DNA of 62,079 nucleotides, filler included, from Jimgerdemannia flammicorona (Eukaryota): assembly GCA_003990765.1 (NCBI GenBank). It is 3 parts of 3 records of this genome, joined end to end, with 100 filler letters (N's around TTAATTAATTAA, not from the genome) between each part and the next. Parts side by side here need not be neighbours in the genome. Positions count along the whole stretch, not along the records: positions 20,732 to 41,360 come from RBNJ01001631.1; 2 more parts are not named here. One strand, 5' to 3'. The notes under the pieces are model-generated. The model worked only from the letters and a program-made list of their open reading frames with translations, made no database searches and had not been told where the DNA came from. A program made the position numbers and the translations under genes. This document shows positions 2,313 through 44,600 of the stretch, piece after piece; the stretch's first letter is position 1; the number at the start of each line of letters is the position of its first letter.

Positions 2313-2344
2313 ATGATGGGATCGCTTTTTCAATATTATTTCTT

Positions 2345-13475: not shown

Positions 13476-15103
<1,628 letters not shown>

Positions 15104-19262: not shown

Positions 19263-19268
19263 TATAAA
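19263..19268 (+). promoter_or_regulatory. Putative TATA box of the reductase gene
   Basis: TATAAA about 50 nt upstream of ATG 19314, with a pyrimidine-rich leader between them. Confidence 0.4.
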
Positions 19269-19313
19269 GCGGCAAAAAGACTGCATTGTCTCTCTCCCCA
19301 ACACTGCCCCACA

Positions 19314-20579
19314 ATGTCCCACGTTACCAACTTCTTTAACGACAAGACGATTCTTCTCACCGGCGGAACTGGCTTCTTGGGCATGTGTCTTGTCGAAAAG
19401 CTCCTTCGCACCGCCAACATATCGAAAATATTTATTCTGGTGCGAGGTTCAACAGATCGCCTAACTCAGATATGGCGAAACCACCTTCCCCACCACGCCG
19501 AGGCGATGATCAGATCTGGCAAGGTGACGCCTTTGGTTGGCGACGTCGCTCTGCCTCAACTGGGTCTCTCCGTTGCTCAGATAGACGAACTATCTCGAAC
19601 GGTCCAGATTGTAATTCATGGTGCGGCCAACATCAGCCTTAAAGCCTCGCTCGCCACGCTCTTCAAAGACAACGTCAAAGCCTCATTAGATCTCGCCGAG
19701 TTGGCGACACGGTCGTTTGTTCGGTTGGAGAGGTACATCCACATTTCAACCGCATACGTAAATAGTCATCTCGCCGACGGCTCTATCATCAAAGAAGATT
19801 TCTACTGGCACACATCTAGCAACGCTGAAGAAGAATACCGACAGGTTTCCCAGACCGGCGACTCCCCTTACACCAAGCTCTTCCCATTCCCTTACGCCTA
19901 TGGCAAGCATCTCGTCGAGAGGCTCCTGCTCTTGAGATATCCGAATCTCCCTCTCCTCATCATGCGTCCCACCTGTATCGGTCCCGCGGTACAAGAACCG
20001 CACCCTGGATTTGAAATCCGAGGGTCTTCTCCCGCTTCGGGATTCGTGTTCGGCTTCCTCTCTTCCAAAAAGCCCGTAACCTACTGGCCGTCCACCCGTA
20101 ATATGGATGGTCACAACATCATCGACGAGATCCCGGTGGACTTTGTGGTGAACAGCATCATCGTCCACGCAGCATACGGCACGATGGGCATCGCCCACTC
20201 GTCGACTAGCTGCTCCGCCCCACTGAAGCTCCGTGACCAATTAGAGTGCGCGTGGAAGACAATGCCGGCGGCCGGCCGGCCGCAGTTCGTGTTCACGAGC
20301 GACCTCAAGCACTCCGAGTTCTGCAGAACCGCCAGGCTTTACTTCGCGTTTGGCAACGAGTGGTTCTACGACGACCAAAAGACAAGGGAACTAATGGAAA
20401 GGATGTCGCCGGCGGATGGGATTGCGTTCAATGTGGATGTCAGGAGCTTCAACAGGTGGTCGCACAATAGTAAAAGGGCTGCGGTGTATTGGTATGAGTT
20501 GACAAAGAACGAAAAAATGAAGCAGAAAAAGGGAATCATGCCAGTGCAGGCAGGCCAGCTCGCTCTGGCTCGGCTATAA
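19314..20579 (+). CDS. Fatty acyl-CoA reductase / male-sterility-2-like extended SDR, intronless, ~421 aa
   Basis: FFNDKTILLTGGTGFLG Rossmann motif, IFILVR, GDV, VIHGAA, HISTAYV, YAYGK (YxxxK), IMRPTCIG, DEIPVDFVVN. ATG 19314 is preferred over 19197 because of the TATA box and the family N-terminus. C-terminus is -ARL. Confidence 0.88.
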   Translation: MSHVTNFFNDKTILLTGGTGFLGMCLVEKLLRTANISKIFILVRGSTDRLTQIWRNHLPHHAEAMIRSGKVTPLVGDVALPQLGLSVAQIDELSRTVQIVIHGAANISLKASLATLFKDNVKASLDLAELATRSFVRLERYIHISTAYVNSHLADGSIIKEDFYWHTSSNAEEEYRQVSQTGDSPYTKLFPFPYAYGKHLVERLLLLRYPNLPLLIMRPTCIGPAVQEPHPGFEIRGSSPASGFVFGFLSSKKPVTYWPSTRNMDGHNIIDEIPVDFVVNSIIVHAAYGTMGIAHSSTSCSAPLKLRDQLECAWKTMPAAGRPQFVFTSDLKHSEFCRTARLYFAFGNEWFYDDQKTRELMERMSPADGIAFNVDVRSFNRWSHNSKRAAVYWYELTKNEKMKQKKGIMPVQAGQLALARL

Positions 20580-20631: not shown

Positions 20632-20730
20632 NNNNNNNNNNNNNNNNNNNNNNNNNNNNNNNNNNNNNNNNNNNNTTAATTAATTAANNNNNNNNNNNNN
20701 NNNNNNNNNNNNNNNNNNNNNNNNNNNNNN
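20632..20730. other. Assembly gap/linker
   Basis: N run with central TTAATTAATTAA (stops in all six frames), the same design as 41361-41460. Confidence 0.97.
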
Positions 20731-21100
20731 NAAAAAAAAAAAAAAAGGACGAAAGTCCCCATGACCACCGTTCTGAATTTATGTATGTAGCGCCTGCGGC
20801 CATTATACCTCAGCGCTGAAATGTATATGGAGTACGCCAATTTATAAATAGCGGTTATGGGTCCTTCAAAATCAACGCATTAACTCCATACGAGTGTACA
20901 ATTAAACGCAATCGGACCAGGCCACCCTGGAAAAGAAAAAGTGTTGATTCCCTTCTTACACAATTGTTCTTTTTTAAGTATGATTGCAGCACTTACTTGC
21001 ACAGTAAAAATTTGTTTGGGAACACAAGTTAGAGGTAGTCTGCAGTGGCAGTCTGGGATGGACTAGAATCATCTCTAGCCTGCAGTATTGTGGTAAATGT

Positions 21101-23751: not shown

Positions 23752-24312
23752 TTTTTTTTTTTTTTTTTTTTTTTTTTTTGTTATAGTCACTCAGACTTGC
23801 CATTTATTACCATTCTATTATATAAAATTACAATATCCCCTCCTACTACCCAATATCCCTAGGGAGCCCCCCCTCTTACTCCTTTATGCTTAAAAAACAC
23901 CTTACCACTTACTACTCTAACTTCCCCTCACTCTACCCACATATTTTCTCTACTAAGCAGTACTGCTGACCTCTCTACAGACCCCATCCCAGCCACCAGC
24001 CTGTCAAGATGTCCTCCATCAACCCTTCCCACCTCGCCAGCTGCTCTTCCAAACTCAAACTCTTTCCTTTCTTAAATATAAACAGCCAGTGATCTACCAG
24101 TCCCACCCATATCACTAATACTAAACCCAAAGTCAGTTACTCCTTTCTCACCCCCCTCACTAATCTATCTCTCAGATTCTCCCATTGACCCTGCTCACCA
24201 TCCTTCCTATGCACAGGATCCAATCTATTCCTAACTACTAATCAGAAATTACCAAGTACTTTACACTCCCCCAGCCAATTTTCTGGTATCTATATAAATC
24301 CCCCTTCCTGAC
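23752..24312 (-). mobile_element. LINE copy 3, 3' part with poly(A) tail (interrupted by copy 2)
   Basis: Poly(T) 23752-23779, then the reverse complement of the family 3' end (AAGTCTGAGTGACTAT) and the ORF2 C-terminus. Confidence 0.9.
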
Positions 24313-27300
24313 CAACCAACACTCTTTCCAGTATCATTCAGGTTACACAATCTTTGAAAAGTACTTACAACATCATTTATTGGAGAAAGTGACTAGCAAC
24401 ATAGTGACCAACTGGCAATCTGAGGTGCATACTGGGCAGGGTGGCCCAAGTGCATTTAACTGGCAGCAGGTGGGGTGAGGTCCTGGGCTGGAGAGAGGTA
24501 TGAGGGGGCTGCTGACAGGAGGATGTGGTAGAGGAGGGGGCAGTGGTGGAGGACCAGGGTCTGGAAGGGCGAGCTTTACAGAGACAGTAAAGGGGAGACA
24601 ACAGGTGACTGGGCTGGAGGGATGGCTGAGGAGAGGCAAGGAAGTGGGGAGAATGGTGGCACAGGGGGGAGTAGCCCTTGGTGGTGGGGGCAGTGGAGCT
24701 GGGGGTATAGTGGCTGAGAGAGCATGACAGCTGATAGAGAGGGGACTGCCAATCTGGAAAAAAATCCAGATATGACTGCTGATGGTGGGGCTGAGCAGCA
24801 GGGGCTTAGAAGATTGGGGGATTTGGCAGATAGTGTGATGGGCCTGGTGGTGGCTCTGTTACTCAAGAAATCGATCTTGGCATTTGCAGTTACTCTGTGC
24901 TTCTGGGGCCTAGTGGTGACAGTGAAAATGATGCTAGATCTCATTGCTAAACAGATGGCTGGAGCTGTGTCTGTAAAGTTTCTGAAGGGTTTGGAGGAGA
25001 TGGAGGTGGGATTTGAGGAGGCTGAGCCTTTGGAGGAGGTGCTGAAGGTGGGACTGACAGTTGAGGAGGTGTGTATTCTGATGATACGCTGTCTGAGATG
25101 GGATCCCAGAGTGGTACAATTGTTGGCAAAAGGAGTACCTATAGTGATGGCAGTGGAGATGAGAAGGAGAGTTGAAGAGGTTATGGCAGAGTATAGTGAT
25201 GTAGTGGATATTGGCTTTAGAGTATGGGAAGGGACCTTGCTCTAGACTAGAGATGTTGATGTGAGGATTCAGCTGGCAGGGAAGAAAGCTACCAGGAAGG
25301 TGAGGGACTGGCCTTTGATAATAGTCTGAGGGGCAATCTTATGCAAGGTGACAAGGGTGAAGGGGAGTGAGGAGGAGGAAGAGGACTTGCTGGAAGCACT
25401 GGAAGAGCTGGGTGGCACAGTAGAGCAAAGGGAAAAGGCTTGGAAGGCATTTGAGGAGACCACACACCTGGAGGTGGTGGATGGAAAGCAGATCCAAGTA
25501 GACAAGGGGCAGTGGGAAAGGACTCAGGGGCACAAGAGACAGAAGGAACTGCTGGCGAAGCTGGAGGAGAGGCCACAGAAGAATGCAGGCAGAATGGTGG
25601 AGACAGCAGATACTAAAGCAAGTATCTGGGCAGGCAAGAGTGGTGGGAGTACTGAGAAGGGGACTGGAGAGGACAGAGAGGTGGCAGGCAATAACCTCTA
25701 TGCTGATGATATGTTTGAGGTCTGGAAGGAGGATGGGGAAGCCTCACCTACCCCTATCCCACTTATCAGACATGGTCTAGCTTCCCAATGCAGGATGGAG
25801 GAGGATGTGCCTATGTGGGGGGCCCAGCGAGTTCAATTTGGAGTTCCAGAGGTGGTGGACAGGGGACAAGGAGTAGCAGTTGGGGAGGAGGAACTGGTGG
25901 ATGTCTCTGAGGTGTGGGATGAGTCTGTGAGTGCCGGAGCTGACACCATGATGCTGGATGGAGGGAGGCCAGCAACTCCTGGAGGGAAGAAGGTGGGGAA
26001 CCTACTTTGGATGTGTCAGATGATGAATAACCTGGTGGCTGATGAGTTGGGGGAGGTGGACTTGAGAGTCATGAGTGATGAGCATTGGGCGAGGATCCTG
26101 CAGGAGAATAGAGTGGTATTGGCATTGAAGGTGGAAATTCTTGCCATATACTTGTGGGAGGAAGGGTATGTATGAGGTGGATGAGGAGCAGGAGGCAGAA
26201 TTGGCAGGCATTGCTGGTAAGAGAGCTGAATACTGCTGGACCAAGCATCATGGATTGCAGCTCTGGAAGAAGGCCTGCCTAGAGTACCAAGAAGAGTTCG
26301 AGGAGATGATGGATGGGGAGATGAATGAGCTGTTGGCTGGGTTGGAGGCTCAGAGGGCGGAGGAGGAAGCAGTGACTGCAGAACATAATCTGGACTTGAC
26401 ACAGGAAGAGAGGAACATGGAGTAGTAGGGATGGATGGGATGACACACTATATTTCACTATGAATAGTACAACCAATATTTTTTCTTTGAATGTGAATGG
26501 GCTGAGGAGTACTTTTCAATGTAGGAATATTTTTACTTGGCTGAAGAATTGGAAGCCAATCTCTTCTTATTGCAGGATGTCCAGTGTGAAGATGATTTGA
26601 ATAGACTAGATTGGACGAAGGAATGGGGAGGAGAAGCAGTTTGGAAGGGCAAGGTGGGAATTCTGGTCTGGAAAGGCAGAGGGGAGATATGGGATGTGAA
26701 GAGCTGGGGGGATAAATTGGTCTGGGGAGAATGGATATGTATGGGTTGGAAGCTGGTCATGGTGGGCTCATGTTATTGTCCTGCCATATGGGGTGAGTAT
26801 GTGGATTGGGTACAGGGTCTCCTGGAAAGTGGGGTTCTTGCAGAAACTGGAGTGGATATGCTGGGTGGAGATTTCAATATGGTCCAGGATGTGTGGTTGG
26901 ATAGAACAGATGGTGGCTGGGGAGCTGAGACTAGGAGTGGAGGGCTGGTGGCATAGGAGGAAGTGGAAAGGCTTAGTGCTCTGGTAGATGCAGGTAGGAA
27001 ATGCTGGGGAGATAGGAGAGTGTACACACATTGGGCAGGGGTCTGGGGATAAGGATTGACTGGATTCTGACAGCTTGCTGCTGGGGCTTAGATGTCTGGA
27101 AGTCACTGGAGGTGGAATGGTGCCCATGGTCAGATCATTGGGAGTTGTTAGGATGAGGACATTTCAGGGGGAGTGGGGATGAACCTGGACATTGGTGCCT
27201 TAATACCTCTTTATTAGATGATAGGATCTGGTGGGATGTATGGGCTGAAGATATACAACTAAGGATGACAAGCTGGAGACAAGAAGGTGCCCCTGTCAGT

Positions 27301-30159
27301 ATCTGGTGGATGAGATTGAATGAGAGGGTAAAGGCCTACTGGAGTGAGGTTGGTAAGGAGGTGGGGAAGCAGAGGAGGTGACGGGTGAGATGGGCTACTG
27401 GTAGGCTGTCTAGACTCTTAGAGGATTGGGCAGGCCTGGCAATATTGGTAGGAGGTGAGGACTGGAGGATGAGGAGGGCTAAAATGGAAGTTAGAGAATT
27501 ACAACAGGTATTGCGGGAAGAGGAGGAGACAAGGGTACAGAGCTTGACCATGTAGCTTCAGTACCTTATGAGGGCCCTTCAGGCAAGAAGGGTGCAGCAA
27601 TGATGGGAAGGGGTGATTGACTCTGAGGGTATATTAGTACATGGGGTACAAGACATTCTTGGATCGCTGAAGGAGTGGTGGAGTAGATTGTGGAGTGAGG
27701 AGGAGGGTGGAGCTGACCCTGATGCCATTGATTGAGCATTGGAAGATTGGTACCTCCTACAAGTGGATGGGCTGGAGGACTTGGTGCTATCAGTTCAAGA
27801 AGAAGAGATCTACTAGGTTCTTATGGCGACAACATGGGGTACTACACTGGGGGAGGATGGTCTGTCCTGGGACTTCTGGAAGAAAATGGTGGGAGTTCCT
27901 GGAGTACTGGGTGAGATGATGGTACTGTGTGACTTTATCCTGCAGATGAGGAGATGGGTGGGGGAGCAGGATCTGGGGCTGGTGATGCTGCTTTATAAGA
28001 ACAAAGAAAGGAGAGAGGACTGGAAGAACTGGCAGCCAATCATGCTACTGGATATGGACAGAAAATTGGTGACGAAGGTGGTAGTTGTGAGGCTATAGAA
28101 GGTGGTCCAGTAAGTTTTGGGTGTTGAGCAGAGGGGCTTTATAGGTGGCCAGCTCATTTGGGATAGCATGGCCTGGGTACATGGCATTATTGAAGGGGCA
28201 CGAGCTTGTAGATTGGATGGGATACTGGTCTTCTTGGATCAAGAGAAGGCTTATAACCAGATGTAGCGAGTCTGGTTAGCTAAAGTATTGGACAGAATTG
28301 GAGTTCCACACCAGTTCCAGTTGGCAATGGTCAGCCTGTTGGAAGGAAGTAGGGCTGTGCTCATTTGCAATGGGCATAGAGGGGTATTATTTTCCCTAGG
28401 AAGGGGTGTTCCACAGGGAGACACACTGTCCCCCATTCTGTATACTCTTTCACTGGAACCCCTAATGGACAGAATTCAGAGAAAGATAGAAGGGCTCAAC
28501 ATCTTTGGTATTGGGTGGAAAGTTGGAGCCTTTGCAGATAACATGGTAGTTGGCCTGGGATCTATTGCTGATGTTGAAGAGCTACAGAAGACAGTAGAGT
28601 GGTATGAGATGAACTCGGGGGCCAAACTCAATTGTCATAAGTGTGAGATGATGGTATTAGGTAATGGCCTGGTGGGGGGAGACATTATTGGAACAATAGT
28701 CCCTACTGGCAAGGCAGTGTAGTACTTGGGCATTTATTTGTTAGTATATGGATCAGTACTTCTCAGACTCTGGTGGGAATAGCGAATTGGAGTCTGGGGG
28801 AAGGCCCTGTGGAGCTGGGGTGGTTGCCACTTTTCTTTGGTAGGGCATGTATCAGTTCTGAATATCTATTGGCTGCCAAAGCTGTGGTACCTGGCTTATT
28901 ATTTGGACTTCCCAGCCTGGGTGGTGAAGAGACTATTGAAGCTGGCCAAAGGGTGGATCTGGGCTTGAAGGAGGAGTCAGATCAGTTGGGAAGTCTTGTC
29001 CTTACCAGTGGAAGAGGAGGTCTTGGACTGGTTGACTTTCTGAAGAGATTACATTGCCTGAGAGTATGGTGGTTGAAGAGAGTAATAGAGCTGAGAGGGG
29101 GCAGTTGGGTTCCACTTCTGCAGAAAGTTTGGGAGTTGAGGTCTGCACCAAGAGACTCAACAGGAGATTTTCTATCATTGGTTGGGCTTCAGAACATTGC
29201 CCAAGTGCATTACAAAGGTTTCTGGTGGGAAGTAGTAGAGGGGGCACACCATATTGGAATTTGTTGACATGGAAATAAAGGAGATGAGGCTTGGGACCCA
29301 GCAATGTGGAGATGGGATCAAGTGTTGCTGGGAGATATGCCCTTAGCTGAGTTTGACATTAGTGATGGGATAGGTTGCCAATGAGGACCAGACCAGAATC
29401 TGTGGTCTAGTGGATGGCAGGGGGTGGGGATCGGTAAGGAGTGGGACTGACATGGTATTTGGACATGGAGTGCTGAGGTGCAGAGGTGGATGCTACTGAA
29501 GTACTGAGTGATCTGGTGGTGCATATTGAGGAGGAATGTCATACTCAACTTCCATTTGGGCCATCTTGTCGAGGGGGGTTGTTTTGACTGTGAGGAGTGC
29601 CACAATGTTGGGCAGGTTGGGGGATATGTGCAGATGCCTGAACATTGGCTAGAATAGTACGAGGTACTTAGTGACTTTTGGAGAATCATTGGGGATCATT
29701 TGGGAGTAGCATATAGGGAATATGGTACATAGGGCTGGTGGGAGGACTTGAGGGATAGACTGGTAGGGGGGGTGGGAAAAGAATAGCTCACATTGGGTTA
29801 GGCTTTGGCAATTTGGGTGGGGTTGGTGGCTCATTGGTTATTTGTTTTTAAAGGTGAGAGGTGATTGAGCCTGGAGGATTGGCTGCGGTGCTGGCATAGA
29901 CTGGTGGAAGACACCCTGACAGGCTGGTGGCTGGGTTGGGGATTGCAGTGTGGATAATGGCATCACTTGGTAGAGAAGATTTGTGGGCAGAGTGGGGGTA
30001 GGATGGGAGTAATAGGTGCAAAGGTGACTTTTGTTGATAATAGTGCAGGGGGAGGTTCCCCCATGGGGATCGGGTAGTGGGAGGTAATATTGTATACTTG
30101 TTTTATAGAATGGTAATAAATGATGAAGTCCAAGTGACTATAAAAAAAAAAAAAAAAAA
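24313..30159 (+). mobile_element. Full-length L1/Tx1-type LINE, copy 2, inactivated
   Basis: TSD AAATCCCCCTTCCTGAC (24296-24312) / AAATCCCCCTTTCTGAC (30160-30176), one mismatch; ORF1 remnants to 26425; ORF2 26460-30077 with GGDFN, SDH, WKNWQPI, GVPQGDTLSP, FADN; poly(A) tail. Confidence 0.95.
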
Positions 30160-30176
30160 AAATCCCCCTTTCTGAC

Positions 30177-30550
30177 TTATATTATAGCACTCCTTATAGT
30201 CAAAGTTCCTCTCCTTCACAAGATGGCCCAAGCAAAAGTTGAGTATAACATTTCTCTATAGTATGTACCACCAGACCACCCAGTACTTGGGTGGCAACTA
30301 TCTCCTCACTTCTGCACTCTAGACCCAGACTCTATTCCAGTCCTACTCTTTATCAATTTCTACAATCTGTCAGCTGCTTGGCCATACATCCTGTCCCACC
30401 CCCCTCTGGAACTCTACTCTATTGCCAATATCAAAGTTCATAAGGAGAGTACCCCCCAGCAATACTTGATCCTATTTTTACATTGCTGGACCCCAAGGCA
30501 CCTCTCTCTCATCTCCCTATTAACAAATTCTGATACAGTGAGCCCCTCAA
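30177..30550 (-). mobile_element. LINE copy 3, continuation to its 5'-truncated end
   Basis: The reverse complement continues ORF2 seamlessly across the copy-2 insertion site; homology stops at about 30547-30550. Confidence 0.85.
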
Positions 30551-32015
30551 GATATATCTCTTAGACTAACTCAAGTTTGTCATAAGCAAGTTCTTATTGG
30601 AGTACCTTCCCAAGATCTTATAGTCCTCAAACATCTTATCTTTAAACTGTCTTGTTATCTCTTGGATTGCTTGCAAGGAAGTATGTATATTGCACTAAGT
30701 TGACTGACTTTATTTCAGAGGAAATAAGAGAGGTATTTATACAAAATATAATTCAATAGTTGCTAAGATATAAAGCTAAATATAAATTCCAATAACTAAA
30801 ATAAAATGCCAGGACAGAAAAACTGCTAAGTTCCAAGGTTGGCACTAATGGTTGCACAAGTTCAGGATACTGGTATAATTCAGTGTCACCTCAGAATGCC
30901 AGTGCTGGAACAATTCAGTATCACCTCAGAATGCTGGTGCTGGAACAATTCAGTGTCACCAAGAGACTTAGAGCAGAATATTCAGGACCATGGAGGCTTC
31001 ATCCTCATTATCACTGAAGGAGATGAGATCCACAAATTCATCATCATCATGTAGGTTGCATGTTTTGCATGCTTTGATATTATGCAGGATGATGTCATCA
31101 CCAATGACATCATCACATTCAGCGGCAGTGGGAAGGAGGTCTGGGGCTCTCCAGTCTATGAGGTTCTCTTCCACAAAATAAGGGACAAATGTGGGATCTT
31201 GGAGAGGTCTAACCTAGATGCTTGGGCCTTGGAATACTGAGATCAATCCTTGTAGAAATTGGTCTGGGTTTTTCTGAAGAATAGAATGCCAGAAGTCTTC
31301 TACTTCATCACTATTGAGGGTGATAGTGGACTGGGCCTCTGTAGCTACCCTGGTTTCTAGTGCATTGATATGGCAGGATCTGAAGTTGGAGACTCTAACA
31401 TACTCCAAGTTAGGGATTGACCATGGTGCATGCCTGAAGATCTGATAGATCTTCTTAGCTGTCCTTGCCTTATATATATCTATGGGAGTGGTATCTTGTA
31501 GCTCTTGAGGGCTGGCCTGTGGGAACTCCTGGCAGAGAAGGTTTTCTATTTCATACTCCTACCACATTTGGAGGTATTCAGTAGCAATGGTGATCCTTGT
31601 TTCCATTTCATGGTGGTAGAGAATATAGTGATAAGGGTCTGCAGTACCCAGGTTGACACTAGGAGTCCTTCTTGTGCAGGTCCCCATGGCTCTTCTGATG
31701 TCTTGGAACATCCTTTCTTCAACTGTGGTGCCTTGGTGGTTCCTTGATCTTGAGGTTTGGTAAGTGGCAGGCATTTCATTTGTGATAAGTCTTTGAGCTA
31801 TTTTGGAATTGGTGGGTCTTGTTGGTTGCTACTACTGTGGTTCCTTAATATTTCTTTTATATTCCTCAAGATACTCATACTGTAGTCACAATGACTTATA
31901 GTTGGTCATTATTGCTCATCTTATATACTGTATGATCTTCTTGTGCTCTGATCTGGTGACTTGTAAGGAAAGGCTGTCTCCTGTACTGATGTCATATTCT
32001 GGGGTCACCATTACA
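30547..32015 (-). repeat. 3' LTR of copy A (terminal ~45 nt lost)
   Basis: Begins TGTAATGGTGACC immediately after the PPT; colinear with 37753-39266; TATAAATA (30734-30741) and AATAAA (30709-30714) on the minus strand. Confidence 0.93.
30968..31909 (-). pseudogene. Accessory ORF of unknown function inside LTR U3 (314 codons including stop, 5 internal stops)
   Basis: One frame from ATG 31909 to TAA 30968 links ORF-track pieces 31559-31774, 31214-31408 and 30968-31174. Homologues lie at 38209-39159 (-) and 49084-50075 (+) with the same terminal TAA. Confidence 0.75.
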
Positions 32016-32025
32016 TCTTCCTCCT
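32016..32025 (-). other. Polypurine tract
   Basis: AGGAGGAAGA directly abutting the TG of the 3' LTR. Confidence 0.85.
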
Positions 32026-32339
32026 GAATAAAGATTTTCTTAAGCATCCTTATTCATTAGTCCAGTCCTGAAAAATTTGCTAATCCCATAACCTCTGGCA
32101 AGGAGTCGAAAAGTGGTGTTTATGGGCTGGCATCTTCTCTATGTATTTTGGTATGATGGTGAAGGGTCACTCCCTTCATATAGAACAAAGGCCTAATTCT
32201 GATCTTGACTGATCAGTTGATAGTTTGAACTCCTCTGGCTTCGAAGTCTCACAGATGAGTAGTTGCTGGTACCATATCTCTTAGAGAATGGTCCAGACAG
32301 ATAGCCTGCTGGTCATGGGACATGCTGTTATGATCTGCA

Positions 32340-35300
32340 GACTAGAACCTCATGGGTGATCATTATGTTTTGCTTCTCTTGTATAGGTTCATGTTACTTC
32401 TTGAGTCTGTTTCTGTATACTGTGGTAGGCAGTATGGTCCCTGAGATTTTTCTAAGCCAGAAGGTAGTTCTCTTGATATCTTGTATATAGAAGGGTCTTT
32501 TTTATTTGGGCTCCAGTTTTCACAACTATGAGGCTTCTACCATATTTTGATACAGCAGGATCTTTTCTCTAATTCAGATAGGTTCTAGGGTCTTGTGATT
32601 CTTTTCTGCATTCTTCCTTATCAGCACTTGTAACTTGATAATGTAATCTTTGGCCTTCTTTCTGATTTGGTGTAGTCTCTGAATTTCTGCATAAACCCAT
32701 CTCCAAGTTAGGTCTAGATTTGTGGCTGAGGTTCCATCAGAATCTTCTTCTCCAAAGAGCAGTTCTCTTGAAGTAAAGTGTGTACTCTGTGACTATATGT
32801 CTCATAGGACAGAGAGGGCAGTTAGGAGGTAGTTATCCCAATTCTCATATATCTCTGAGATTTTTGCCAGAATGTTCTTGAGGGTCTTGTTGGTTCTCTC
32901 TGTCTGTCCATTTTCTTGAGAGTGGTATGTGGTAGTCTTGATGTGCTGAATCTTGTATTTCTGATATATTATCTCATGAAATCTATTGACAAATTCTGTG
33001 CCATAGTCTGTTGTGATTTGCTTCAGTGTCTTGTAGTGGCAGATGATTTCTCAGTGCAGGAAGTCAGTTATGGAGAGGGCATTGGCTTCTTGTAATGCTC
33101 CTACTTCTATCCATTTGGTAAAGAGGACTACAATAACTATAATATAGCAGTTTCCTGATAGTGTTACTGGTAGTGGCCCAATGATATCCATTGTGATGTG
33201 GTGGAAGAGAATAGGCTCAATTCTTGATGACCCAGGTGCCTGGTCTTGTTGATCTTATTTCTGTTTTTGGCACTTGTCATACCCTTTGACAAATTGGTAC
33301 AGGTCTTCTTCTATTTTGGGCCACCATATGGTTCTTTTTGCCTTGTTATATATGTTGGTTCCTCCTAAGTATCCTTGCTTGTATACTTTCTTCATTACTT
33401 GATATATCTTGTGTTTGGGTATTACTAGCTTTCCTCCTTTTCTGAGTATAGTGTTATCTAGTTCAAACTATTTCCAAGTCTGATTGATGATAGTGATTGT
33501 CCAGGGTTTGAGGTGGTTGGACATCTTCCACTGCTCAAGATAGCTGATTAATCTATAGTATAACTTCTTATTCATGTTGAATAGTCTTAATGGGGATGTT
33601 TTGGGATGTCCTTGAGAGTGCATCAGCATTGATATTGGTTCTTCCTGAGCAGTGCTTGACAGTACAGTCATACTCTTGCAGCCTGTAGATCTATCTAGCA
33701 TATATTTCTTTGGAGTTCAGAGTGTGGAATAGCCAGACAAGAGTGGAATGGTCTGTTTGAATAGTGAAATATTTTCCCGCTAGGTAGTGGTGGAACTTGT
33801 CGACTGCCCAAATTACTGCTAAGCATTCAAGCTTGCATAACTTGTAGTTTTGTTCTGCTCCACAGGTACCTCAGCTTGCATAAGAGATGACATATTCATG
33901 TCTATCTTTCTTCTGAGCTAGGACTGCTCCAAGTTCTATAGCAGTTGCATCTGTCTGCAGGATGAATTCTAGGTTCTAATCTGGTCTTCTGAGGATAGGT
34001 GCTTGGGTCAACCTGGTCTTGAGTTCATTGAAGATTTCTTGGCATTTCTTGGTCCTTTTGAATTTGGTTTCCTTCTTCAGTAGCTCATAGATAGATGCTG
34101 CAATGTTGGAGTATTCTTTGATGAATCTTCTGTAGTAGCTGGCCAGTCCAAGGAAGGAATGAACTTCTGTGATTGTTCTGGGTCTTGGGTAGGCTGCAAT
34201 AGCCTTGATCTTCATGGGGTCTGTGTGGATTCTGATCTGGTTGATGAGATGTCCTAGGTAGGTGATTTCCTGAGCTACAAACTTGCATTTCTTGGGCTTG
34301 ATGTAGAGGCCATACTCCTTGAGCTTCTTGAGAGCTAGCTGTATATGATTGATATGTTCCCATGCAGTATTGTTGAAGATGATCACATCATCAATATAGA
34401 CAAAGAGCTATTTTCCAATTTCATTACTGAAGACTCTGTTCATCATTCACTGGAAACTTGCTGGGGTATTGCACATTCCAAATGGCATTCACAGATAGAT
34501 ATAGGTGGCATCAGGTGTGATAAAGGCTGATTTCTCACTGGCATCTTGAGAGAGACCAATCTGATAGAAGCCTGAAAACAGATCCAAGGTGGTGTAGTAT
34601 TAGGCTTCACTTCCAAGAGTGGTAAGGATTTCTTAAATATTTTGCAAGGGCTGCCTAACCTTCTTGGTGATTGCATTGAGCTTCCTGTAGTCAATGTAGA
34701 GTCTTGGTACAAACTCTCCAGACTTGCTTCCTTTCTTTGGGACAAGGACAATGGGTGAAGTCCAGGGGCTGATAGCTTGCTTGATCATTCTAGCTTCTTC
34801 CATTTCCTTGAGTTCTGCTCACAGCCATTCTCTGTAGGCAGGTGATATGGGTCTGGCTTTCTGATAGATGGGCTTGGTATTACTGGTGTCAACTTCATGA
34901 TAGTACTTGGGTTCTTAATTGTAGATATCTCTAAAGTCTGTAGTAAGTACTCCTTCATTCTGATGTAGGATCTTGAGAAGTTGTTCTTCTAGGGGAAAGT
35001 TTTCTCCAATGGTATATGTGTACTTATTCTGATCCTTGTCTTTCTTGTGCTCAAGTTCAGTAATCTTGATAGTGGCATAGGCTCCTCTTCCTGTAGATCT
35101 AAAGCCTTGTTCTCCTCTCTTGGTCTTGATGAGTTTGATGGCTTCAGTGATCTTGGGCTTTTTGATTTCATGGATAAGCATCTGGCCAATCCTGTCATGC
35201 TTCTTGACTTTGAATGGAGTGGTGGGGTTGTGATTCCTGACTATGAGGAAGATCTTGCCAGTATAATCAGGGTCAATTACTCCTCCTTTAACTAAGATTT

Positions 35301-37650
35301 CACTTTTGGACAGACTGCTCCTAGTCTTGATAATTCCAGCATGATTCTCTGGTAACTTAACTCCAATTCCAGTGCCAAGTAGAGTAGTGGTCTGTGGTTT
35401 GAGGGTAGCATCTTGGATGCTGGCAAGGTCCATTTCTATGGCTCCTTCAGTCTTGTATTCTGGGATCTTGGCTTCAGGGTGAAACCTCTTGACCTTGAGG
35501 GTGATGTCTGATTCTTATTCCTCCTCATCATCACTGTCAGCTTGAAGCTTGGGGGGTTGGTCATCTTCTTCAACTTTCCTCTTTGCTTTGACAGCTTCTT
35601 GCTCATGCTTCTGTTAGCAGATTTTCCTGACTTCACTGATACAGAACCAGCAGTCATTCAGGTATTTAGAGTAGTACATCCTAGTATCATGAGGGCATCT
35701 TCCTTGAGGGGTATAGCTATTGATGATCTTGTTGTACCATTGCTCATCTGTGAGCTTGGGTGTCTTGTTCTTGTTCACCAAGTGTATGAAGACTTCTATG
35801 TCCTCTTCATCTCCTTTCTCCATGTCTGGTAGGACTCTTTTGTAGATATTGATAGAGACTCATACCTTTCTTCCTCAATAGTTGATCTGCATCTTCTGGG
35901 CATTGAGGTCAATGATAGCCTTGGTCTTGTGAAGCCATTGGTTGCCAATGAGGATGTCATAGTTGGTGGCACTTGTAACAATCACATCTACTGGGATGGT
36001 AGCTCCTCCTATCTTGATGGGGACTTCTCGGATTTTGTCAAGGGGGGTAGCTTGTGTACCATTTGCTGTAATATAGACCATCTTGGTGAACTCTTCAATT
36101 TCCCATCCTAGGCAGTCAATTGCCTTCTTGCTCATAAGGTATCCTCTAGTACTAGTATCAATAATGGCATCAAAGATACAGTCTTCGATTTGACATGGGG
36201 TATAGGCTGATGTCTTGTGCTGGTCTTCAGATTCTTTGCCTGAGTCTTCAGATTCTTCTTGTGCATTGTGAGCCTCTACAATCTTGTACTCTTGATTCTT
36301 GGCAGTAGTTGCGAGTCCTACTCTCAACTGTTATCTGAAGGCAGGGACTTTAGCTAGTTGTCCAAAAGTAGCATTGACCTTCTATTCCTTGAGATCCTTG
36401 TAGATATCATACTGATGGATCTTGATCTTGTACAGCTTCTGTTCCTTCTTGCTTTTGCTTTCTCCTGAGACTGGAGTAGTGCCTTCAATGATTTGGCAGG
36501 CAGCTTCATCTAACTCCATATCTTGATCAATCTCCTTGGGTTGGGTCTTGCTTTGAATAGTGACAGCTGGGGTCTTCTTTGGTCTTCCAACTGGCTTGCT
36601 GTTGCTCTTCTTATCATAGAGCTTAGACTGGGTTCTGGTATCTTCAGTAGCAGGGTAGAATTCGAGTTCCTCATAGTATTCTTCATCATCAGTGTCACCA
36701 ATCTCCTCAATGACTACTGCATTGATTTGTTCTCTAGTTCTGCTAGCATTGCTTGATTGGGCTTTGCATCTTATTTCAGTCATACAATTCTTTGCATAGT
36801 GACCTTCTTCTCTACATCTGAAGCATATAGTATTGTATTCTTCTATAGCAGCTGCAAATCTCTGCACTGGTCTCCTGTTGGCACTTCAGACTTCTCTAAC
36901 AATATTACTAAGGTATGTAGTCATTTCGGCAAACTGCTTGGCAAGTTCCTCCACTGGGTCAGCTTTGGCTGTCTTGGGTATAGGTGGGAATAGTTGTCTG
37001 TTTACAACTGTAGTGGGTATAATACTGGTTGGCTTCAATGGCTCTATCTTGATGCCATTTATTTTCTCCATTGAGTATTCAGCAGAGTGTCTGGCAGTCC
37101 AATATCTCTATACAAAGACCACTTTCTGATCAAGGATCAGTGCAGCTGGGGTAGACCAGATTTCTAGGGCAATTTCAGGGTGAACTCCTTTGAGGAAGGT
37201 TGAATCCACTATTTGTTCCTTGAGGGCATCATCATAGCCAGCTAAGATAATCTGATAGCATATTTGGGTATAGAATGAGTTGGGATCTTCACTGAGTCCC
37301 TGGCAGATAGTGTTGGGTTGATCCTTGAGAGCTTGCTTGATCTCTTCAGTATAGTATGTTGTTCTGAGGAAGGCCTTTATGTTTGCAAGTTTGGCTGCAC
37401 CATTATCAGCAATAGTGGCTGTATTGAACTTGTCTCTGGCAGGTCCTCTGAGGCCGACTGGTAGAAGGGCCAATTGTGCATCCATACCAAGGGCTCATAC
37501 AGCAGTGAATTGTTCAAAGTCTTCAATGAAGGTCAAGATTGACTCTTCAGTAGTATATCCATAGAATATGGGGAGATATATTTCTATCTTGTCTTGAATT
37601 CTTGCAGGGGTGACTCTTGTAGTCAGGGTAGTTGTTGTGGGAGTTATTCA
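32340..37650 (-). pseudogene. gag-pol of copy A (single frame from gag through RT/RNase H; one frameshift before integrase)
   Basis: CFRCREEGHYAKNC knuckle, DAIIDTS protease site, dUTPase, LYIDYRKLN, YIDDVII, FLGLASYYRRFI, QTDA, NADALSR, GCDKCQK, HITMDIIGPLP. ORF pieces from 37485 to 33976 share one frame. Confidence 0.93.
35089..35505 (-). pseudogene. Trimeric dUTPase domain within pol (copy A)
   Basis: All five motifs recognisable: AIEMDL, KTRSSL, GGVIDPDYTGKI, DRIGQML, RGEQGFRSTG. Confidence 0.93.
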
Positions 37651-37686
37651 TTTTTCAGCTTAAAAGTGTTGGATTCATCTTGAATC

Positions 37687-37704
37687 ACCAGCCAATGGCC
37701 ACCA
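37687..37704 (-). other. Primer-binding site (tRNA identity not assigned)
   Basis: TGGTGGCCATTGGCTGGT begins 3 nt after the LTR terminus ...TGACA; the homologous sequence is at ~50547 in copy B. Confidence 0.65.
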
Positions 37705-37707
37705 AGT

Positions 37708-39266
37708 TGTCATGTAGTGGTTGCTGAGTCCTTCAAATATGCCAGATTCTCTTCAAGATGTATCTCTTAGACTAACTCAAGTTTGTTATAAGTAAGTTCT
37801 TATTGGAGTGCATTCCCAAGGTCTTATAGTCCTCAAACTTCTTATCTTTAAACTGTCTTGTTATCTCTTAGATTGCTTGCAAGGAAGTGCGTATATTGCA
37901 CTGAGTTGACTGACTTTATTTCAGAGGAAATAAGAGGGGTATTTATACAAAATATAATTCAATAGTTGCTAAGATATAAAGCTAAATATAAATTCCAATA
38001 ACAAAAATAAAATGCCAGGACAGAAAAACTGCTAAGTTCCAGGGTCGGTACTAATGGTTGCACAGGTTCAGAATGCTGGTATAATTTAGTGTCACCTCAG
38101 AATGCCAGTGCTGGAACAATTCAGTGTCACCTCAGAATGCCAGTACTGAAACAATTCAGTGTTACCTCAGAATGCCAGTACTGGAACAATTCAGTATCAC
38201 AAAGAGTCTTAGAGCAGAATATTCAGGACCATGGGGGCTTCATCCTCATTGTCAGTGAAGGAGATGAGATCTGCAAATTCATCATCATTGCATAGGTTGC
38301 GTATTTCACATGCTTTGATATCACATGGGATGATGTTATTGCCAATGACATCATCATGTTCGGCAGTAGCAGGAAGGAGGTCCAGGGCTCTCCAGTCTAT
38401 GAGGTTCTCTTCTACAAAATAAGAAACAAATGTGGGGTATTGGGGAGGTCTAACCTAGATACTTGGGCCTTGGAATACTGAGATCAATCCTTGCAGGAAT
38501 TGGTCTGGGTTGTCCTGAAGGATAGGATGCTAGAAGTCTTCTACTTCATCACTATTGAGGGTAATAGTGGACTGGGCCTCTGTAGCCACTATGGTTTCTA
38601 GTGCATTGATATAGCAGGATGACAGGTCTCTGAAGTCTGAGACTCTAATATACTCCAAGTTGGAGATCAACCATAGTGCATACCTGAAGATCTGATGGAT
38701 CTTCTTAGCTATCCTTGCCTCACATATATCTATAGAAGTGGCATCTTATAGCTCTTGAGGGCTGGTCTGTGAGAACTCCCAGCAGAGGAAGTTTCCTATT
38801 TCGTACTTCTGCCACATTTAGAGGCATTCAGTAGCAATGGTGATCCATGTTTCCATTTCACAGTGGTAGAGAATATAGTCATAAGGGTCTGCAGTACCTA
38901 GGTTAACACTAGGAGTCCTTCTTGTGTTGGTCCCCATGACTCTTCTGATGTCTTGGAATATCCTTTCTTTAACTGAGATGTCTTGGTGGTTCCTTGATCT
39001 TGAGATTTGGTGAGTTGCAGGTATTTTGTTTGTGGTAAGTCTTTGAGCTATTTTGGAATTGGTGGGTCTTATTGGTTGCTGCTACTGCAGTTCCTTGATC
39101 CTTCTTTTATATTCCTCAAGATACTTATACTGTGATCACAATGACTCACAGTTGGTCATTATTGCTTATCTCATATACCATATGATCTTTTTGTGCTCTG
39201 ATCTGGTGACTTGTGAGGAAAGGCTGTCTTCTGTACTGATATCATTATTCTGGAGTCATCATTATA
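37708..39266 (-). repeat. 5' LTR of copy A (1559 bp)
   Basis: Termini TA(from TG)TAAT...TGACA; contains the U3 ORF (38209-39159), 35-nt tandem repeats (38083-38200), TATAAATA (37940-37947) and AATAAA (37915-37920). Confidence 0.93.
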
Positions 39267-40448
39267 ATAAATAGATAGAATTATAAGAATTAGTCTTCAG
39301 AGAACTCAAGTACTATATGACTATAGTACTAATCTCTATATAATCTAATCTATAGAGATCATTCATCTTATATACAGATACTTCTAAAGACAGCCTTAGA
39401 GCAGTTCTAGTCTAAGAAAGACCTGATCAGTAGTATTATATAATAACTTATACAAGCTAAACTACTAACTAGTAGCAAACTAATTATAGTAACACAAAAC
39501 TAGAATATCTTATAGTTATATAGATAGTCACTCTGTTCAAATACTATTCTATCGGAAAAAAGTTTACTGTGATAATTGATCATACTGCTCTCAAATAGCT
39601 ATTTAACTATAAAGAACCTACTGAAATTCTAGCCTACTGGTTCCTTATTCTATAGAATTACAAAATTACCATTATTTATAAAGTAGAAAAAGCTCATAAT
39701 AATGTTAATATACTTTTCTATCAACTCTAATGAATTAGAAGAAGAGTATACTAAAGAACTACATCTTAAAGAAAACTCCTATAACTATCAAAGTATAAGA
39801 AGACCTCATTTAAAAAGAACACCAGAAAGCTCATTAGAGACAAATAAATATAAAAGAAAAACTATAAATAATACATCAATATTAGCTCAATCTCAGAATA
39901 TAAGTTAGAGGTATACTCAAGAAATGTGATACCTATCAGAAGTACTAAGAAAAGAAAATTATCAAGCACTACTATAACTAATTATATCACTAGACAATAT
40001 CTTTCAGAGATAGAGTATAGATATTATTAGACTACTGTCAGTTATATCAAGAAAGAACAAATATATTCTTATATTTATAGAATATCTGACTAAATATATC
40101 GAAGCTTTTTTAATAAAAATTATATATATCTTGATCATTATTGGTCTCCTCTATAACCTCACAATTAGATATAAACCTCTAACAGAACTTATTTCTGACT
40201 GAGATACAGAATTTATTAATAATAAAATTATGGATTATATATGCTTAAATTTACAAAATCTATCTCAAATAAACTATATTATACTACTCTCAAATCAATA
40301 GTATGATAGAACAAATAAAACAAACCATTAAGAAAGAACTTACTCAAGTCAATTCTACTAACTGAGACCTCTGCTAATCTGAGATTCTATGGAAAATTCA
40401 GAACATCCCTATTATCTCTACTAAATAAAAGCTATTCAAAATAATATT

Positions 40449-40532
<84 letters not shown>

Positions 40533-40918
40533 GAACTACTGATTATGAGAACCTTTGAAACCTCCTCTAAAAGGCAGAACAATTATATAATCAAGCCTGA
40601 GCTCAGATAATTAAGACTCAAAAAAGACAAAAGAAGTTCTATAACTAGAAGTAGAAAGATTAGAAGATTAAGATTAGAGATCAAGTATACTAGTCTGGAG
40701 AAATAAACTTTGCTACCAAACTGAAGTCCAAATAGAAAGAACTCTATTTTGTACACAATATTAGAGAAACCAGTATCTATATAAGAAGTATGGATAGATA
40801 TACCCTGAGGATCTCAGTTTATATCAACTATCTCAAGAAATACTTACTCCTATATAATAGTTTAGAGAATTGACCAGTATCTCCAGATCCTCTGAAGAAC
40901 AGGAATAAGACCTAGAAT
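39267..40918 (+). mobile_element. Old Ty3/Gypsy relic, right part (RNase H and integrase)
   Basis: FILYTDTS, LRAVL, FTVIIDHTALK, HNNVNIL, SIDIIRLL, YILIFIEYLTKYIEAF and a GPY/F-like tail. Same orientation and decay level as 21400-23751. A 77-nt A run sits at 40453-40529. Confidence 0.8.
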
Positions 40919-41360
40919 TAGTGCTCCGAACGAATGGAGTTGATCCGGGTGAGATTCGATTCAGATTCGTCATGTGATGGATTCGAATCAACTCGGATTG
41001 GTCTCGTGATCTGATCCGGATTGATCCGGATTGATCCGGATTGATCCATCCGGATTGATCCATCCGGATTGATCCATCCGGATGATCCATCCGGATGATC
41101 CATCCGGATGATCCATCCGGATTGACCCATCCGGATTGATCCATTCAGATTGAAATCTTTGGTGACGTCACCCTTTCTTTTGTTCATTTCGCTCTTGTTT
41201 TTTTTTCTGCCGCACTTTGGTGACATCACCCTATCCTTTGTTCCCTCTCTTTTCTTTGTTCTTTTTCTTTGTTCTTTCCTGCCGCATCACGAGCAAACAA
41301 AACAGCAGCCCTAAATTCGTACGTTGGTCCAGTCTACTCATTTTTCACCCTGCAATGATC
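40919..41360. mobile_element. Unmutated end of a probable hAT-type DNA transposon with GATCCGGATT subterminal repeats, cut by the gap
   Basis: Abrupt switch to CpG-rich sequence at TAGTGCTCCGAACGAAT; GATTCGATTC motifs; tandem 10-14-nt (GATCC(ATCC)GGAT(T))n at ~41011-41150. The other end is not visible. Confidence 0.5.
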
Positions 41361-41460
41361 NNNNNNNNNNNNNNNNNNNNNNNNNNNNNNNNNNNNNNNN
41401 NNNNTTAATTAATTAANNNNNNNNNNNNNNNNNNNNNNNNNNNNNNNNNNNNNNNNNNNN
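41361..41460. other. Assembly gap/linker
   Basis: N44-TTAATTAATTAA-N44. Confidence 0.97.
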
Positions 41461-41629
41461 AAAAAAAAAAAAAATCACCATATGCCCACCACTCTGTGTA
41501 CAGATCCCTTCCACCAGACCACAATGTCACCCACCCTGGGGACCCCTATGGGAAGCTCTACACACTCACCACATGCAAGTATCCATGTCAAATAGGTTCC
41601 ACCTAAAATCACAGCTATTCAATATATGA

Positions 41630-44600
41630 ATAAAGCCTAAGGAATACATCTGCAATTATACCAATCATATTGACAACCTGGTGAATGAGGTGAATTCTAT
41701 CAGCACATTAATAGATTGTATTAGAGATGAAGATAAGGTCCTAGTGTTCACAAGAGGTCTTCTGGAGGCATATAATGTAGTCATTGCTGCCATATATGAG
41801 AGTAGAAGTCTCATAAACTATACTCAGGTGATTATGAGCCTCATGAATGAGGAAATGTGCTAAGAAAACAGTTCTAACAGTGCCAAAGATGACAAAAGGG
41901 CATTCTACAGGTCTCACAGATACAGATTCAGCAGCAAATGAGGTCCAAAGCACTAGCAGAGCCAAAGAGGAGAAACCTAAACCCAAAATCAATATGATAG
42001 TAGCCAATTAGATAAGATTGATGGGTATTACTACTACTGTAGCAAGTATGGACATATGCAGTGTGATTGCTATTGTAAAGATAAGGAAAGTGGTAAAAAT
42101 GAAAATAAGCAAGAAAAAGAAAAGTATAGAGAAAATCATAGTAAAGAGAAATGTGACAATACAAATATTGTCAAAACTGATAAAAGTGATGATCTACTTT
42201 TTACACAAGATGTCAGTTCTACTGCTAATCTCACCTCCATATCTATGAAATCTGGTCAGAAGGATGACAATTTTGGACCAAAAAGTTCTGCCAATTCTGC
42301 CAGCACAAGTTCTGCCAAATCTACCACAAGCACCAATTCTACTGTCAGTAGTGTGAGATCTATGGAAAGATCTACCACTAATCCGTCATCTATAACTAGT
42401 CAGCAAAATACTTTTGAGCCAACAAAAAGTAGTGATGTCAGCAATCCTAGTGTGGATAGAATAATTAACTATATACTGAGTGAATATACTAATACAGTCA
42501 ATGATAACAATATCTGGCTTATAGATTTAGGAGCCACACAACATATGATAGCCCACCAGGAGTAGTTCTCTATATATGAGTCATTTAAACACCTGGTGCC
42601 TATCAAACTGGGAAATAACAATGTGATATATGCCCAAGATAAAGGAAATATTGAGATATATCTCTATAGGAATGTCATCAAGACTGCAGCCATACTTGAG
42701 GACATACTATATACTCCAGAGATAGGAAAGAATCTCTTCTCCATAGGTAAGATGATGGCTCGAGACAATAAGAAGATATACATACATCTAAAAGACACAA
42801 CCATATATGGCCTATATGGTAATAAACACAACAAGATGTTGATAACAGCCTCAAAGTAAGGTAATCTATATATGATCAATGATATACTGAATAGAGCAAA
42901 AGCCTTTACATATGACAACAACTATATATGATGCATACAATATATGGCATAAATGTTTGGGGTACATTGGCAAATCAAGCCTTGAATGGATGATCAGGAA
43001 CAGCTCAGTGAGTAGATTGCCAGCATATCATGACAAATAAGGCATTCTGATATCCATTTGAAGAATGATGAAAGTACACCTCAGGGATCCTAGATCTCAT
43101 CCACACCAATATATGTGGACTGATGCATATAGTATCACATTCTGGCAAGAGATATTTCCTTACATTTATTGACAATAATATGTGTAAGATATATGTATAT
43201 CTTCTATTGGTGAAAAGTGAAGCCTTGGAGAAATTCAAAGAATTTAAAGTGATCACTGAGAATAGAACAGGATGTAGAATATATACTATATACTTAGACA
43301 ATGACCAGGAGTACATAAATGGCCAATTTAGGCAATTCTTGATGAAATATGGTATATGCCATCAGACAACAGCTTCCTATATACCTTAGCAAAATGGCAT
43401 GGCTGAGTGATTTAACCATATAGTCATAGAAATAGTACATATGATGATTAATGCAACTGGATTAGAATACTCCTATTGAGAAGAAGCTGTGAATATAGTG
43501 ATATATATTCATAACTGGTGTGTATTTTAATTATTAAGCAAGGATTTCAGTAATAAGCATTCCAGAGATACTGATTGTACCCCCAAGGAATTATGAAGTG
43601 GAATAAAGCTGGATATATCCCATCTATATATATTCAGTTGCAAGGCATATGTTCTCAACAAAAGCAATATTAACCAGTATAAATTTGAGTCAAAGGTAAG
43701 CAAGCACATCCTTCTAGGATATAGTGAGAGATTATATAGGCTCTGGAATCTGCATACAAGATATGTGGTGATCTTGCATGATGTATAGTTCTGAGAAAAG
43801 AGAGATTTGGAATATATGGAAGTACAGGTCAAGACCTCTATATTCCAGTCAGTGCAACTGTCACCAATATCTTGAAAGGCTCAAGTAGTGAATCAAAATT
43901 ATTATTAACCACTGTATGAGCTCAAGCCAATGTTACCTGAAGAACCAGAAGTAACAGAGATCAAAGATAACAGTAAATCCTCTGACAATGAGGAAATCAA
44001 AGGAAAGGACAAACAAAAGCCAAAGCATAAGCTCAGGAACAAAATGTATTCCAACTTAAGGAGTTATTGAGATGCACCAGCAAGCCCCAGGTAGTAATAT
44101 AAGGATCACATGAGCTATGCTTAAGTGTATAAATATATATATATAGCTACATCTGGAGAGCCACACATATGATGAGGCTATGTAATACTCAGATAGCAAG
44201 AAATAGGAATATATGATAGATGAGAAATACAATTCACTTATCAAGAATAGTATCTGGGATCTGGTACCTCTTCTGCCAAACTATCAAGCAATAGGATCCA
44301 AGTAGGTATATAGGATAAAGTGTAATGCTGATAGAAATGTAGAGTGATATAAGGCTTGTTTTGTAGCTAAGGGTTATTCGCAGAATTATGACATAGACTA
44401 TAATGAAACATTTTTACCTGTATTCAAGCTTACTTCCTTAGAATACTCCTTGTGATTGGTATGCTATATGACCTAGAGATCTATCAAATGTATATGAAGA
44501 TGGCATTTCTGAATAGTGATGTAGACACTGAACTATATATCTATCAACTGCAAGGATACTAAAATGGTGAAAAACTCATATACAAATTATACAAGAGACT

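Follow-up and report, generated by a model that had tools for sequence, protein, structure and literature searches.

Can a fungal retrotransposon's long terminal repeat (LTR) hold a protein-coding gene? The question is raised by a stretch of 62,079 nucleotides (nt) from Jimgerdemannia flammicorona (assembly GCA_003990765.1; three parts of three records joined end to end, called the window below), which contains a decayed Ty3/Gypsy retrotransposon, element A, and a related element B. An earlier note on this DNA had described an open reading frame (ORF) of ~315 codons shared by three LTR copies. The best explanation overall is a selected gene borne by the LTR, decayed in the window, that codes for a nuclear trans-acting regulator, and a probability of about 55% is given to this reading.

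The ORF is contained entirely in the 1.47 kb LTR; element A has it in each of its two LTRs, and element B in its 5' LTR. In the 3' LTR of element A (30547..32015, minus strand) the copy A3 occupies 30968..31774 on the same strand, with 268 codons plus TAA, and is a pseudogene that retains its ATG and has internal TAG codons at 31561-31559 and 31216-31214. Copy A5, in the 5' LTR of element A, is found at 38209..39024 (minus strand) and has ATA in place of the start codon and 4 internal stops. Copy B, in the 5' LTR of element B, is found at 49216..50075 (plus strand); it also begins with ATA and has 11 stops, of which 8 precede a frameshift within the acidic tail and 3 follow it. All three copies read in the same sense-strand frame, as had been reported, and have a terminal TAA in common, which follows VLNILL or, in copy B past its frameshift, VLNFLF. 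The indels that had been described as keeping the frame were also seen again, namely 9 nt between the LTRs of element A and 15 nt in copy B, where another indel of 3 nt keeps it too; the late frameshift of copy B results from changes of +32 and -6 nt. Searches of the window by tblastn with four family members matched the three LTR copies and nothing else, and the ORF is therefore not a duplicate of gag, pol or a neighbouring host gene.

Intact homologues of the ORF are found in metagenomes. The query (P0001) was the A3 copy read through, with X at its two stops. Searching 1.84 billion representative proteins with phmmer gave 6 matches, one of them spurious; a word-indexed search gave 5 matches among 222 scored candidates, and a profile search gave 12 among 8000. 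A protein of 1364 amino acids (aa) with 22 matched stretches, P0010, was rejected as a spurious match to a low-complexity repeat protein. Four full-length members are intact, P0003 (271 aa), the ORF of locus L001 (291 aa), P0009 (342 aa) and P0015 (325 aa). They represent four subfamilies with mutual identities of 33-56%, and all begin with Met-Pro followed by a short stretch rich in Arg, Ser and Thr. The homologues come throughout from short JGI/ENA metagenome contigs, and none is from NCBI or UniRef. A metagenome scan for the DNA of relatives gave one locus, L001, from 105 pattern matches; no such DNA was found in viral contigs (0 from 101 pattern matches) or in prokaryote genomes (0 from 55).

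The gene is shorter than first proposed. The earlier note had begun it at 31909, and the homologues start with Met-Pro-Ala at window position 31774, 45 codons downstream of that ATG, which gives a real length of 268 codons. Residues 1-271 of P0003 align end to end with 31774-30971 by tblastn (68% identity, E 3.6e-117). The proposed 5' extension, 31775..31909 (minus strand), is a non-coding leader. Two of its in-frame stops, TGA at codon 8 and TAG at codon 26 of the earlier frame, had been explained as mutated sense codons; they are common to all three copies and are part of the leader. The TAG at codon 26 is also kept in a contig end from a sequencing run of another organism. A fusion with pol was considered as well and is ruled out by in-frame stops that precede the ATG in every window copy and lie just upstream of it in L001. 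No fused or longer form of the protein was present among the 8000 scored candidates, which is weak evidence.

The openness of the frame and the conservation of the protein suggest that the ORF is very probably a real gene under selection. The A3 frame contains 3 stops (two internal ones and the terminator), where the other five frames have 8-27. In 2000 shuffles the number of stops was 14.1 +/- 3.5 with a minimum of 4, and none was as open as the A3 frame. L001 and the window LTR cannot be aligned as DNA outside one block of 29 nt, yet tblastx in the ORF frame matches them with E 3.5e-46. In the earlier note's terms, a ratio of nonsynonymous to synonymous change (dN/dS) of about 1 between subfamilies would have spoken against the gene. 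The ratio found between A3 and L001 by the Nei-Gojobori method is ~0.16 (pN 0.42, with pS saturated at 0.75), and two shifted-frame controls on the same alignment give pN/pS of 0.90 and 1.08. Because the gene is intact across four divergent subfamilies, with conserved start and core length, selection appears to have acted within the element lineage.

The window copies have been killed by a characteristic kind of mutation. All three copies are dead, and no protein is therefore expressed from them. Each of the 14 in-frame stops of the three copies that could be judged (for copy B, those ahead of its frameshift) differs by a single C>T or G>A change from the Gln, Trp or Arg codon that an intact homologue has at that position. 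Both stops of A3 align to Gln (CAG) in the intact homologues, and the earlier observation that three of five stops in the 3' LTR frame are CAG in another copy holds for codons 27, 117 and 232 of that frame. Contigs at least 80% alike were counted in four public runs, two from soil metagenomes and two from one other organism. Position 31561 reads G, that is, CAG on the coding strand, for 459.7 of 465.5, 64.6 of 64.6, 27.4 of 27.4 and 43.2 of 43.2 depth units in the four runs. Since nearly all contigs agree, the first A3 stop is CAG in the family at large. Among the polarised C>T changes 38 of 62 are at CpA, and no CpG is found among 344 unchanged C positions; the intact relatives, in contrast, use many Arg codons, and CpG is frequent in L001. 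The C>T/G>A pattern reads as the signature of deamination like that of repeat-induced point mutation (RIP) or linked to methylation.

The same LTR family appears abundant elsewhere. In one of the runs (X1) most of the ORF has a summed word depth of ~530-1690 and the neighbouring end of pol one of ~200-560, with a drop to 11-35 at the variable acidic tail. Every contig is added into such depths, which do not measure copy number. Across the LTR the sums run from hundreds to ~2000 and show that the family is common and diverse in the runs examined.

Element A is a Ty3/Gypsy (Metaviridae) retrotransposon on the minus strand at 30547-39266, with an LTR pair that is 87% identical and with the corresponding order of Pfam domains. 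The 3' LTR has 1469 nt, is aligned with 37753-39264, and begins with TGTAATGG directly after the polypurine tract. The 5' LTR is found at 37753..39266 (minus strand; 39266 is approximate), and the sequence upstream of it is unrelated to the 3' end of pol. Between them the internal region (32016..37752, minus strand) encodes gag, protease, dUTPase, reverse transcriptase, RNase H and integrase in that order and is fragmented by stops. The Pfam matches are zf-CCHC (in gag, 4.7e-05), RVP_2 (8.9e-09), dUTPase (4.6e-27), RVT_1 (3.9e-12), RT_RNaseH (3e-17) and Integrase_H2C2 (1.2e-10). The 5' LTR of element B (48963..50498, plus strand) belongs to a related subfamily ~75% identical to that of A, and internal sequence then continues to ~54009. 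In both Gypsy copies the dUTPase domain is located between protease and reverse transcriptase, at 34918-35514 (minus strand, E 4.6e-27) and 52700-53032 (plus strand, E 8.8e-19), an arrangement that is on record for some fungal Gypsy elements (PMC2864245).

Several observations define the ends of the LTR. The similarity of all three copies opens at the same TGTAATGG, and both 5' LTRs are preceded by unrelated flanks. Contig ends in the four public runs pass from 30547 into the same sequence that comes after the 5' LTR of element A, which makes the repeat unit a true LTR, 1469 nt in length. A polypurine tract precedes the 3' LTR, and of the TG..CA ends usual for LTRs the TG start is seen, with ..TTGA at the other end. 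By eye, no target-site duplication was recognisable in the decayed flanks, and nothing convincing was seen by way of splice donor or acceptor sites or a primer-binding site in the decayed window copies. The earlier claim of an accessory protein gene in the LTR of a dUTPase-carrying Ty3/Gypsy element is supported, and no characterised relative was found.

The arrangement of signals in the LTR suggests how the gene may be expressed. In the 3' LTR of element A the order is the LTR start (32015), a TATA-like site, the leader, the ATG (31774), the stop (30968), tandem repeats, TATAAATA, AATAAA and the LTR end (30547). TATAAATA at 30734..30741 (minus strand) is presumed to be the LTR promoter that marks the end of U3, the unique 3' region of the LTR, and a polyadenylation-type signal AATAAA follows 20 nt after it, at 30709..30714 (minus strand). 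Both are conserved in all three copies, and in each LTR the ORF is 5' of both, in agreement with the earlier note, which had put it upstream of the TATA box. The 35-nt tandem repeats that separate the ORF stop from this TATA box, at 30870..30960 (minus strand, 2.6 copies, Tandem Repeats Finder score 147), are candidate enhancer repeats; their counterparts in the 5' LTR are at 38076..38200 (minus strand, 3.6 copies, score 201). The second TATA-like site, TATATAAG at 31920..31927 (minus strand), is upstream of the ORF, 146 nt before its ATG, and as a pattern match only is a candidate for an ORF-specific promoter. L001 has a TATA-like TATAAAAG 73 nt before its own ATG, likewise a pattern match only, and this hints at an ORF-specific promoter there, though chance is possible. 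The 29-nt block that spans leader and ATG is 93% identical between L001 (355-383) and the window (31794-31767), which points to conservation of a cis element or of the translation-start context.

The protein consists of a basic N-terminus, a core of constant length and an acidic tail. The N-terminal 39-43 residues have a net charge of +8 in P0003, +4 in L001 and +1 in P0009, and that of P0003 includes 10 Lys and Arg in 39 residues. In the same three proteins, the ones measured, the core is 173 aa in every case, and the tail has 59-126 residues with a net charge of -15 to -22. The tail contains motifs of the D-L-I-x-F and F-x-x-L-I kinds, with D-L-I-x-F repeats followed by runs of Ser, Asp and Glu, and three of the four subfamilies share a hydrophobic C-terminus, (I/V)LNFLL. 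Helices make up most of the AlphaFold models, and the tail has a pLDDT below 50 in the full-length model. An acidic, disordered tail with bulky hydrophobic motifs is a trait of acidic transcriptional activators and is not specific to them.

Domain and fold searches agree with the earlier impression that no domain is recognisable, since Pfam, PDB sequences and fold comparison gave nothing usable. The window copy matched no Pfam family at E<=0.01. Sixteen homologues matched only three weak Pfam families at E<=1, none of them retroviral, and PDB sequences gave no match at E<=10. With models of low confidence as queries, Foldseek found nothing at E<=0.001 (best E 0.59 in PDB and 0.26 in BFVD), and the best VIA-align Z was 4.1, with none at Z>=5. 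In the ESM Atlas the best feature score was 0.83, which is below the usable level, and the best structural TM score by query was 0.33.

Taken together, these features may point to a regulator encoded within the LTR. In living copies, a family of dUTPase-bearing Ty3/Gypsy elements would carry in its LTR a gene of ~270-340 codons with a conserved ATG of its own, set in an A-rich leader with in-frame stops upstream. From a position in U3, a copy of the gene would be held by every LTR, and the gene would travel at the 3' end of the genomic RNA. Its product would arise through a promoter in the 5' portion of the LTR or through a subgenomic RNA, presumably from the 3' LTR copy. The protein would be a nuclear trans-acting regulator of the element's own expression, perhaps a transactivator acting on the 35-nt repeats upstream of the LTR TATA box. 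In the window the copies are dead relics that C>T/G>A hypermutation, of a RIP or methylation-deamination kind, has inactivated. It is likely that the LTR location of the ORF holds in living copies too. The nuclear or transactivator role is proposed because of the charge layout, the F-x-x-L-I type motif in the acidic tail and the tandem repeats that adjoin the TATA box. The acidic tail with its hydrophobic motifs weakly favours a transactivator, and this mechanism is put forward as a tentative possibility.

A wider proposal is that this fungal Gypsy lineage is "complex" in the retroviral sense, with each LTR a self-contained gene unit for a new class of trans-acting regulator. The unit would consist of the upstream TATA, the conserved leader and ATG, the ORF of 270-340 codons and the LTR's own poly(A) signal. 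The regulator, a transactivator or an anti-silencing factor, would drive the main promoter through the repeats downstream of the gene, and solo LTRs would still be expressible. This proposal is regarded as doubtful.

Several points weigh against a selected, LTR-borne regulator. All three window copies are broken. The contigs of the intact homologues are at most 4.8 kb, and only L001 (1535 nt) is readable as DNA; apart from the 29-nt block at the ATG, its flanks have no similarity to the window LTR or pol. Differences between the A and B copies number 42, 31 and 57 at codon positions 1, 2 and 3, which is only a mild bias (chi-square ~7.9, p ~0.02) and appears to be a mild trace of past constraint beneath heavy later decay. 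Between A3 and A5 the corresponding numbers are 40, 24 and 32, and the dN/dS of 0.57 is attributed to transition-biased neutral decay after insertion, not to selection. The ORF would lie in U3 by the position of TATA and AATAAA only, and this placement, like the route of expression, is a guess from anatomy. Neither a DNA-binding domain nor any other known domain was recognised with Pfam or PDB sequences, and the likeness of the tail motifs to activation-domain motifs is a putative one. Model confidence is low (pLDDT 44.6 for the full length and 54.5 for the core, pTM 0.50), and the fold searches carry little weight.

An unlikely alternative role for the protein is that of a Rev-type factor for RNA export or expression, like the CERV protein of the Ty3/Gypsy element Cer1. 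Its Arg-rich N-terminus would bind RNA and its Leu/Phe-rich end would recruit export machinery, and unspliced genomic RNA would be carried out of the nucleus. The Lys and Arg residues of the P0003 N-terminus and the conserved (I/V)LNFLL end are consistent with such a factor. The basic charge is weak in the subfamily of P0009, however, and the spacing of the C-terminal motif is unlike that of classical export signals. There is also no sequence match to any solved structure. The accessory protein of Cer1 is documented as necessary for the export of its genomic RNA (PMC10309623). In the present family no splicing of the element is known, so that a need for regulated export would be hypothetical.

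A role in counter-defence appears improbable. The acidic tail of an anti-silencing factor would dock on host chromatin or on a SUMO-linked silencing component and in this way keep methylation or RIP-type inactivation away from new copies. That the host inactivates the family through C>T mutation is clear, and the repeated D-L-I-x-F motifs followed by Ser/Asp/Glu runs are putatively similar to SUMO-interaction motifs. In truffle genomes, such elements are said to be controlled by a methylation-based defence (PMC12581995). Against this role, the protein has no homology to known silencing suppressors, and the window copies were silenced anyway.

It is very improbable that the ORF was transduced from the host, as a gene or a piece of one, and rides along in the LTR without a role in the life cycle of the element. 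LTR retroelements do take up extra ORFs of many kinds (PMC5408684). However, searches of 5.8 billion and of 1.84 billion proteins turned up no cellular homologue, although absence there is not proof, and the gene is intact in four subfamilies down to 33% identity with start and core length conserved. A chance open frame in LTR DNA, called a protein by metagenome gene finders, is close to refuted: all three window copies do have stops, and gene callers predict ORFs on any open stretch, but none of the 2000 shuffles was as open as the A3 frame, protein similarity persists where DNA is saturated, and the 14 stops are all single RIP-type steps from sense codons.

The rest of the window contains other mobile elements and a few host genes. 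A non-LTR retroelement, similar to long interspersed elements (LINEs), is present in two copies ~70-74% alike within 1-6000 and 24000-30400, with RVT_1 matches at 3721-4185 and 28267-28719; these copies are extreme in their plus-strand GC skew, +0.41 to +0.50, while their AT skew is near 0. A decayed element at ~40000-47000 has, by eye, a zinc-knuckle-like gag and an aspartic protease motif and looks Copia-like, and one of its ORFs (41981-42562) had no match in Pfam. Host genes with ~45-52% GC are found among AT-rich repeat tracts at 10506-11216 (minus strand), 14597-15100 (plus strand) and 19197-20576 (plus strand). They are a protein kinase fragment, an exon of a Ras-family (Rho/Rac-like) GTPase (E 3.9e-27) and a gene for a fatty acyl-CoA reductase. 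For the reductase, Ascomycota account for most of the nearest Atlas clusters. Four runs of 44 N, interpreted as masked or unknown sequence, occur as two pairs, at 20632-20731 and 41361-41460, and none is within the LTR ORF. At 61142-61525 there is a long homopolymer-type T/A tract that reads as poly-Phe in one frame.

The LTR ORF is a new protein family in an unusual place, while accessory genes of LTR retroelements as such are already known. Accessory genes separate "complex" retroviruses from simple ones. They are rare in LTR retrotransposons, where their usual site is between pol and the 3' LTR. Mouse mammary tumour virus (MMTV) has its superantigen gene, sag, within the U3 of a complex retrovirus LTR, and nef and the bel genes of foamy viruses overlap the LTR in part. 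Like sag, the ORF described here is a complete sense ORF inside the LTR, presumably in its U3 part, and is hence duplicated in both LTRs. It differs from sag in that no sequence or fold similarity was found, the fungal element has no env, and the protein combines a basic N-terminus with an acidic tail, no membrane anchor having been noticed. Foamy virus Tas/Bel1 and other retroviral transactivators likewise come from accessory genes that lie at the 3' end and extend into the LTR. As in Tas/Bel1, an acidic activation region is proposed to act on the element's own promoter, and a separate internal promoter is possible. Unlike Tas/Bel1, the gene is wholly inside the LTR, its activation and DNA binding are predicted only, and no homology was detected. 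More broadly, Pfam, PDB and Foldseek gave no sequence or fold homology to accessory genes of the sag, nef or bel type, the fold comparison being made with low-confidence models.

Accessory proteins of other retrotransposons offer further parallels. CERV is encoded by a spliced mRNA of Cer1, a Ty3/Gypsy element of Caenorhabditis elegans, and like the LTR ORF it is a lineage-specific accessory protein with no known domain and with a nuclear regulatory role, which for the LTR ORF is a proposed one. In contrast to the LTR ORF, it is a product of spliced mRNA that is not placed inside the LTR in the accessible portion of PMC10309623, and no sequence relation was found. The additional ORFs (aORFs) of plants and rotifers, such as Retrosat2 ORF0 and bdelloid ORF3, are similar in being extra, family-specific ORFs beside gag-pol, often without known function, but they have no detected homology to the LTR ORF and, in the passages cited, are situated outside the LTRs. 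Retrosat2 ORF0 is upstream of gag-pol and outside the LTR (PMC3485330), and each bdelloid ORF3 is a unit of its own that is expressed by way of spliced mRNA (PMC5408684). A review of plant aORFs has no phrase that places an ORF in, within or inside an LTR (PMC7264820). In fungi, dUTPase-bearing Gypsy elements have been described in basidiomycetes and Tuber (PMC2864245). The Tmt1-type elements of Tuber are ascomycete Ty3/Gypsy elements with a dUTPase domain; they are likened here by description only, and the portions of PMC2864245 and PMC12581995 at hand mention no LTR ORF. No published protein gene inside a fungal retrotransposon LTR was found in the literature, with subscription journals incompletely covered.

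If the location and role of the gene hold in living copies, fungal retrotransposons can carry their own regulator in the part that each new insertion duplicates and that persists in the form of solo LTRs. This protein family has probably escaped genome annotation through repeat masking; its homologues are all from unannotated metagenome contigs. The family is apparently abundant in soil metagenome runs and should therefore be easy to study, provided that its location is the same in living copies. It would then offer a testable case of how a retroelement copes with the genome defence of its fungal host.

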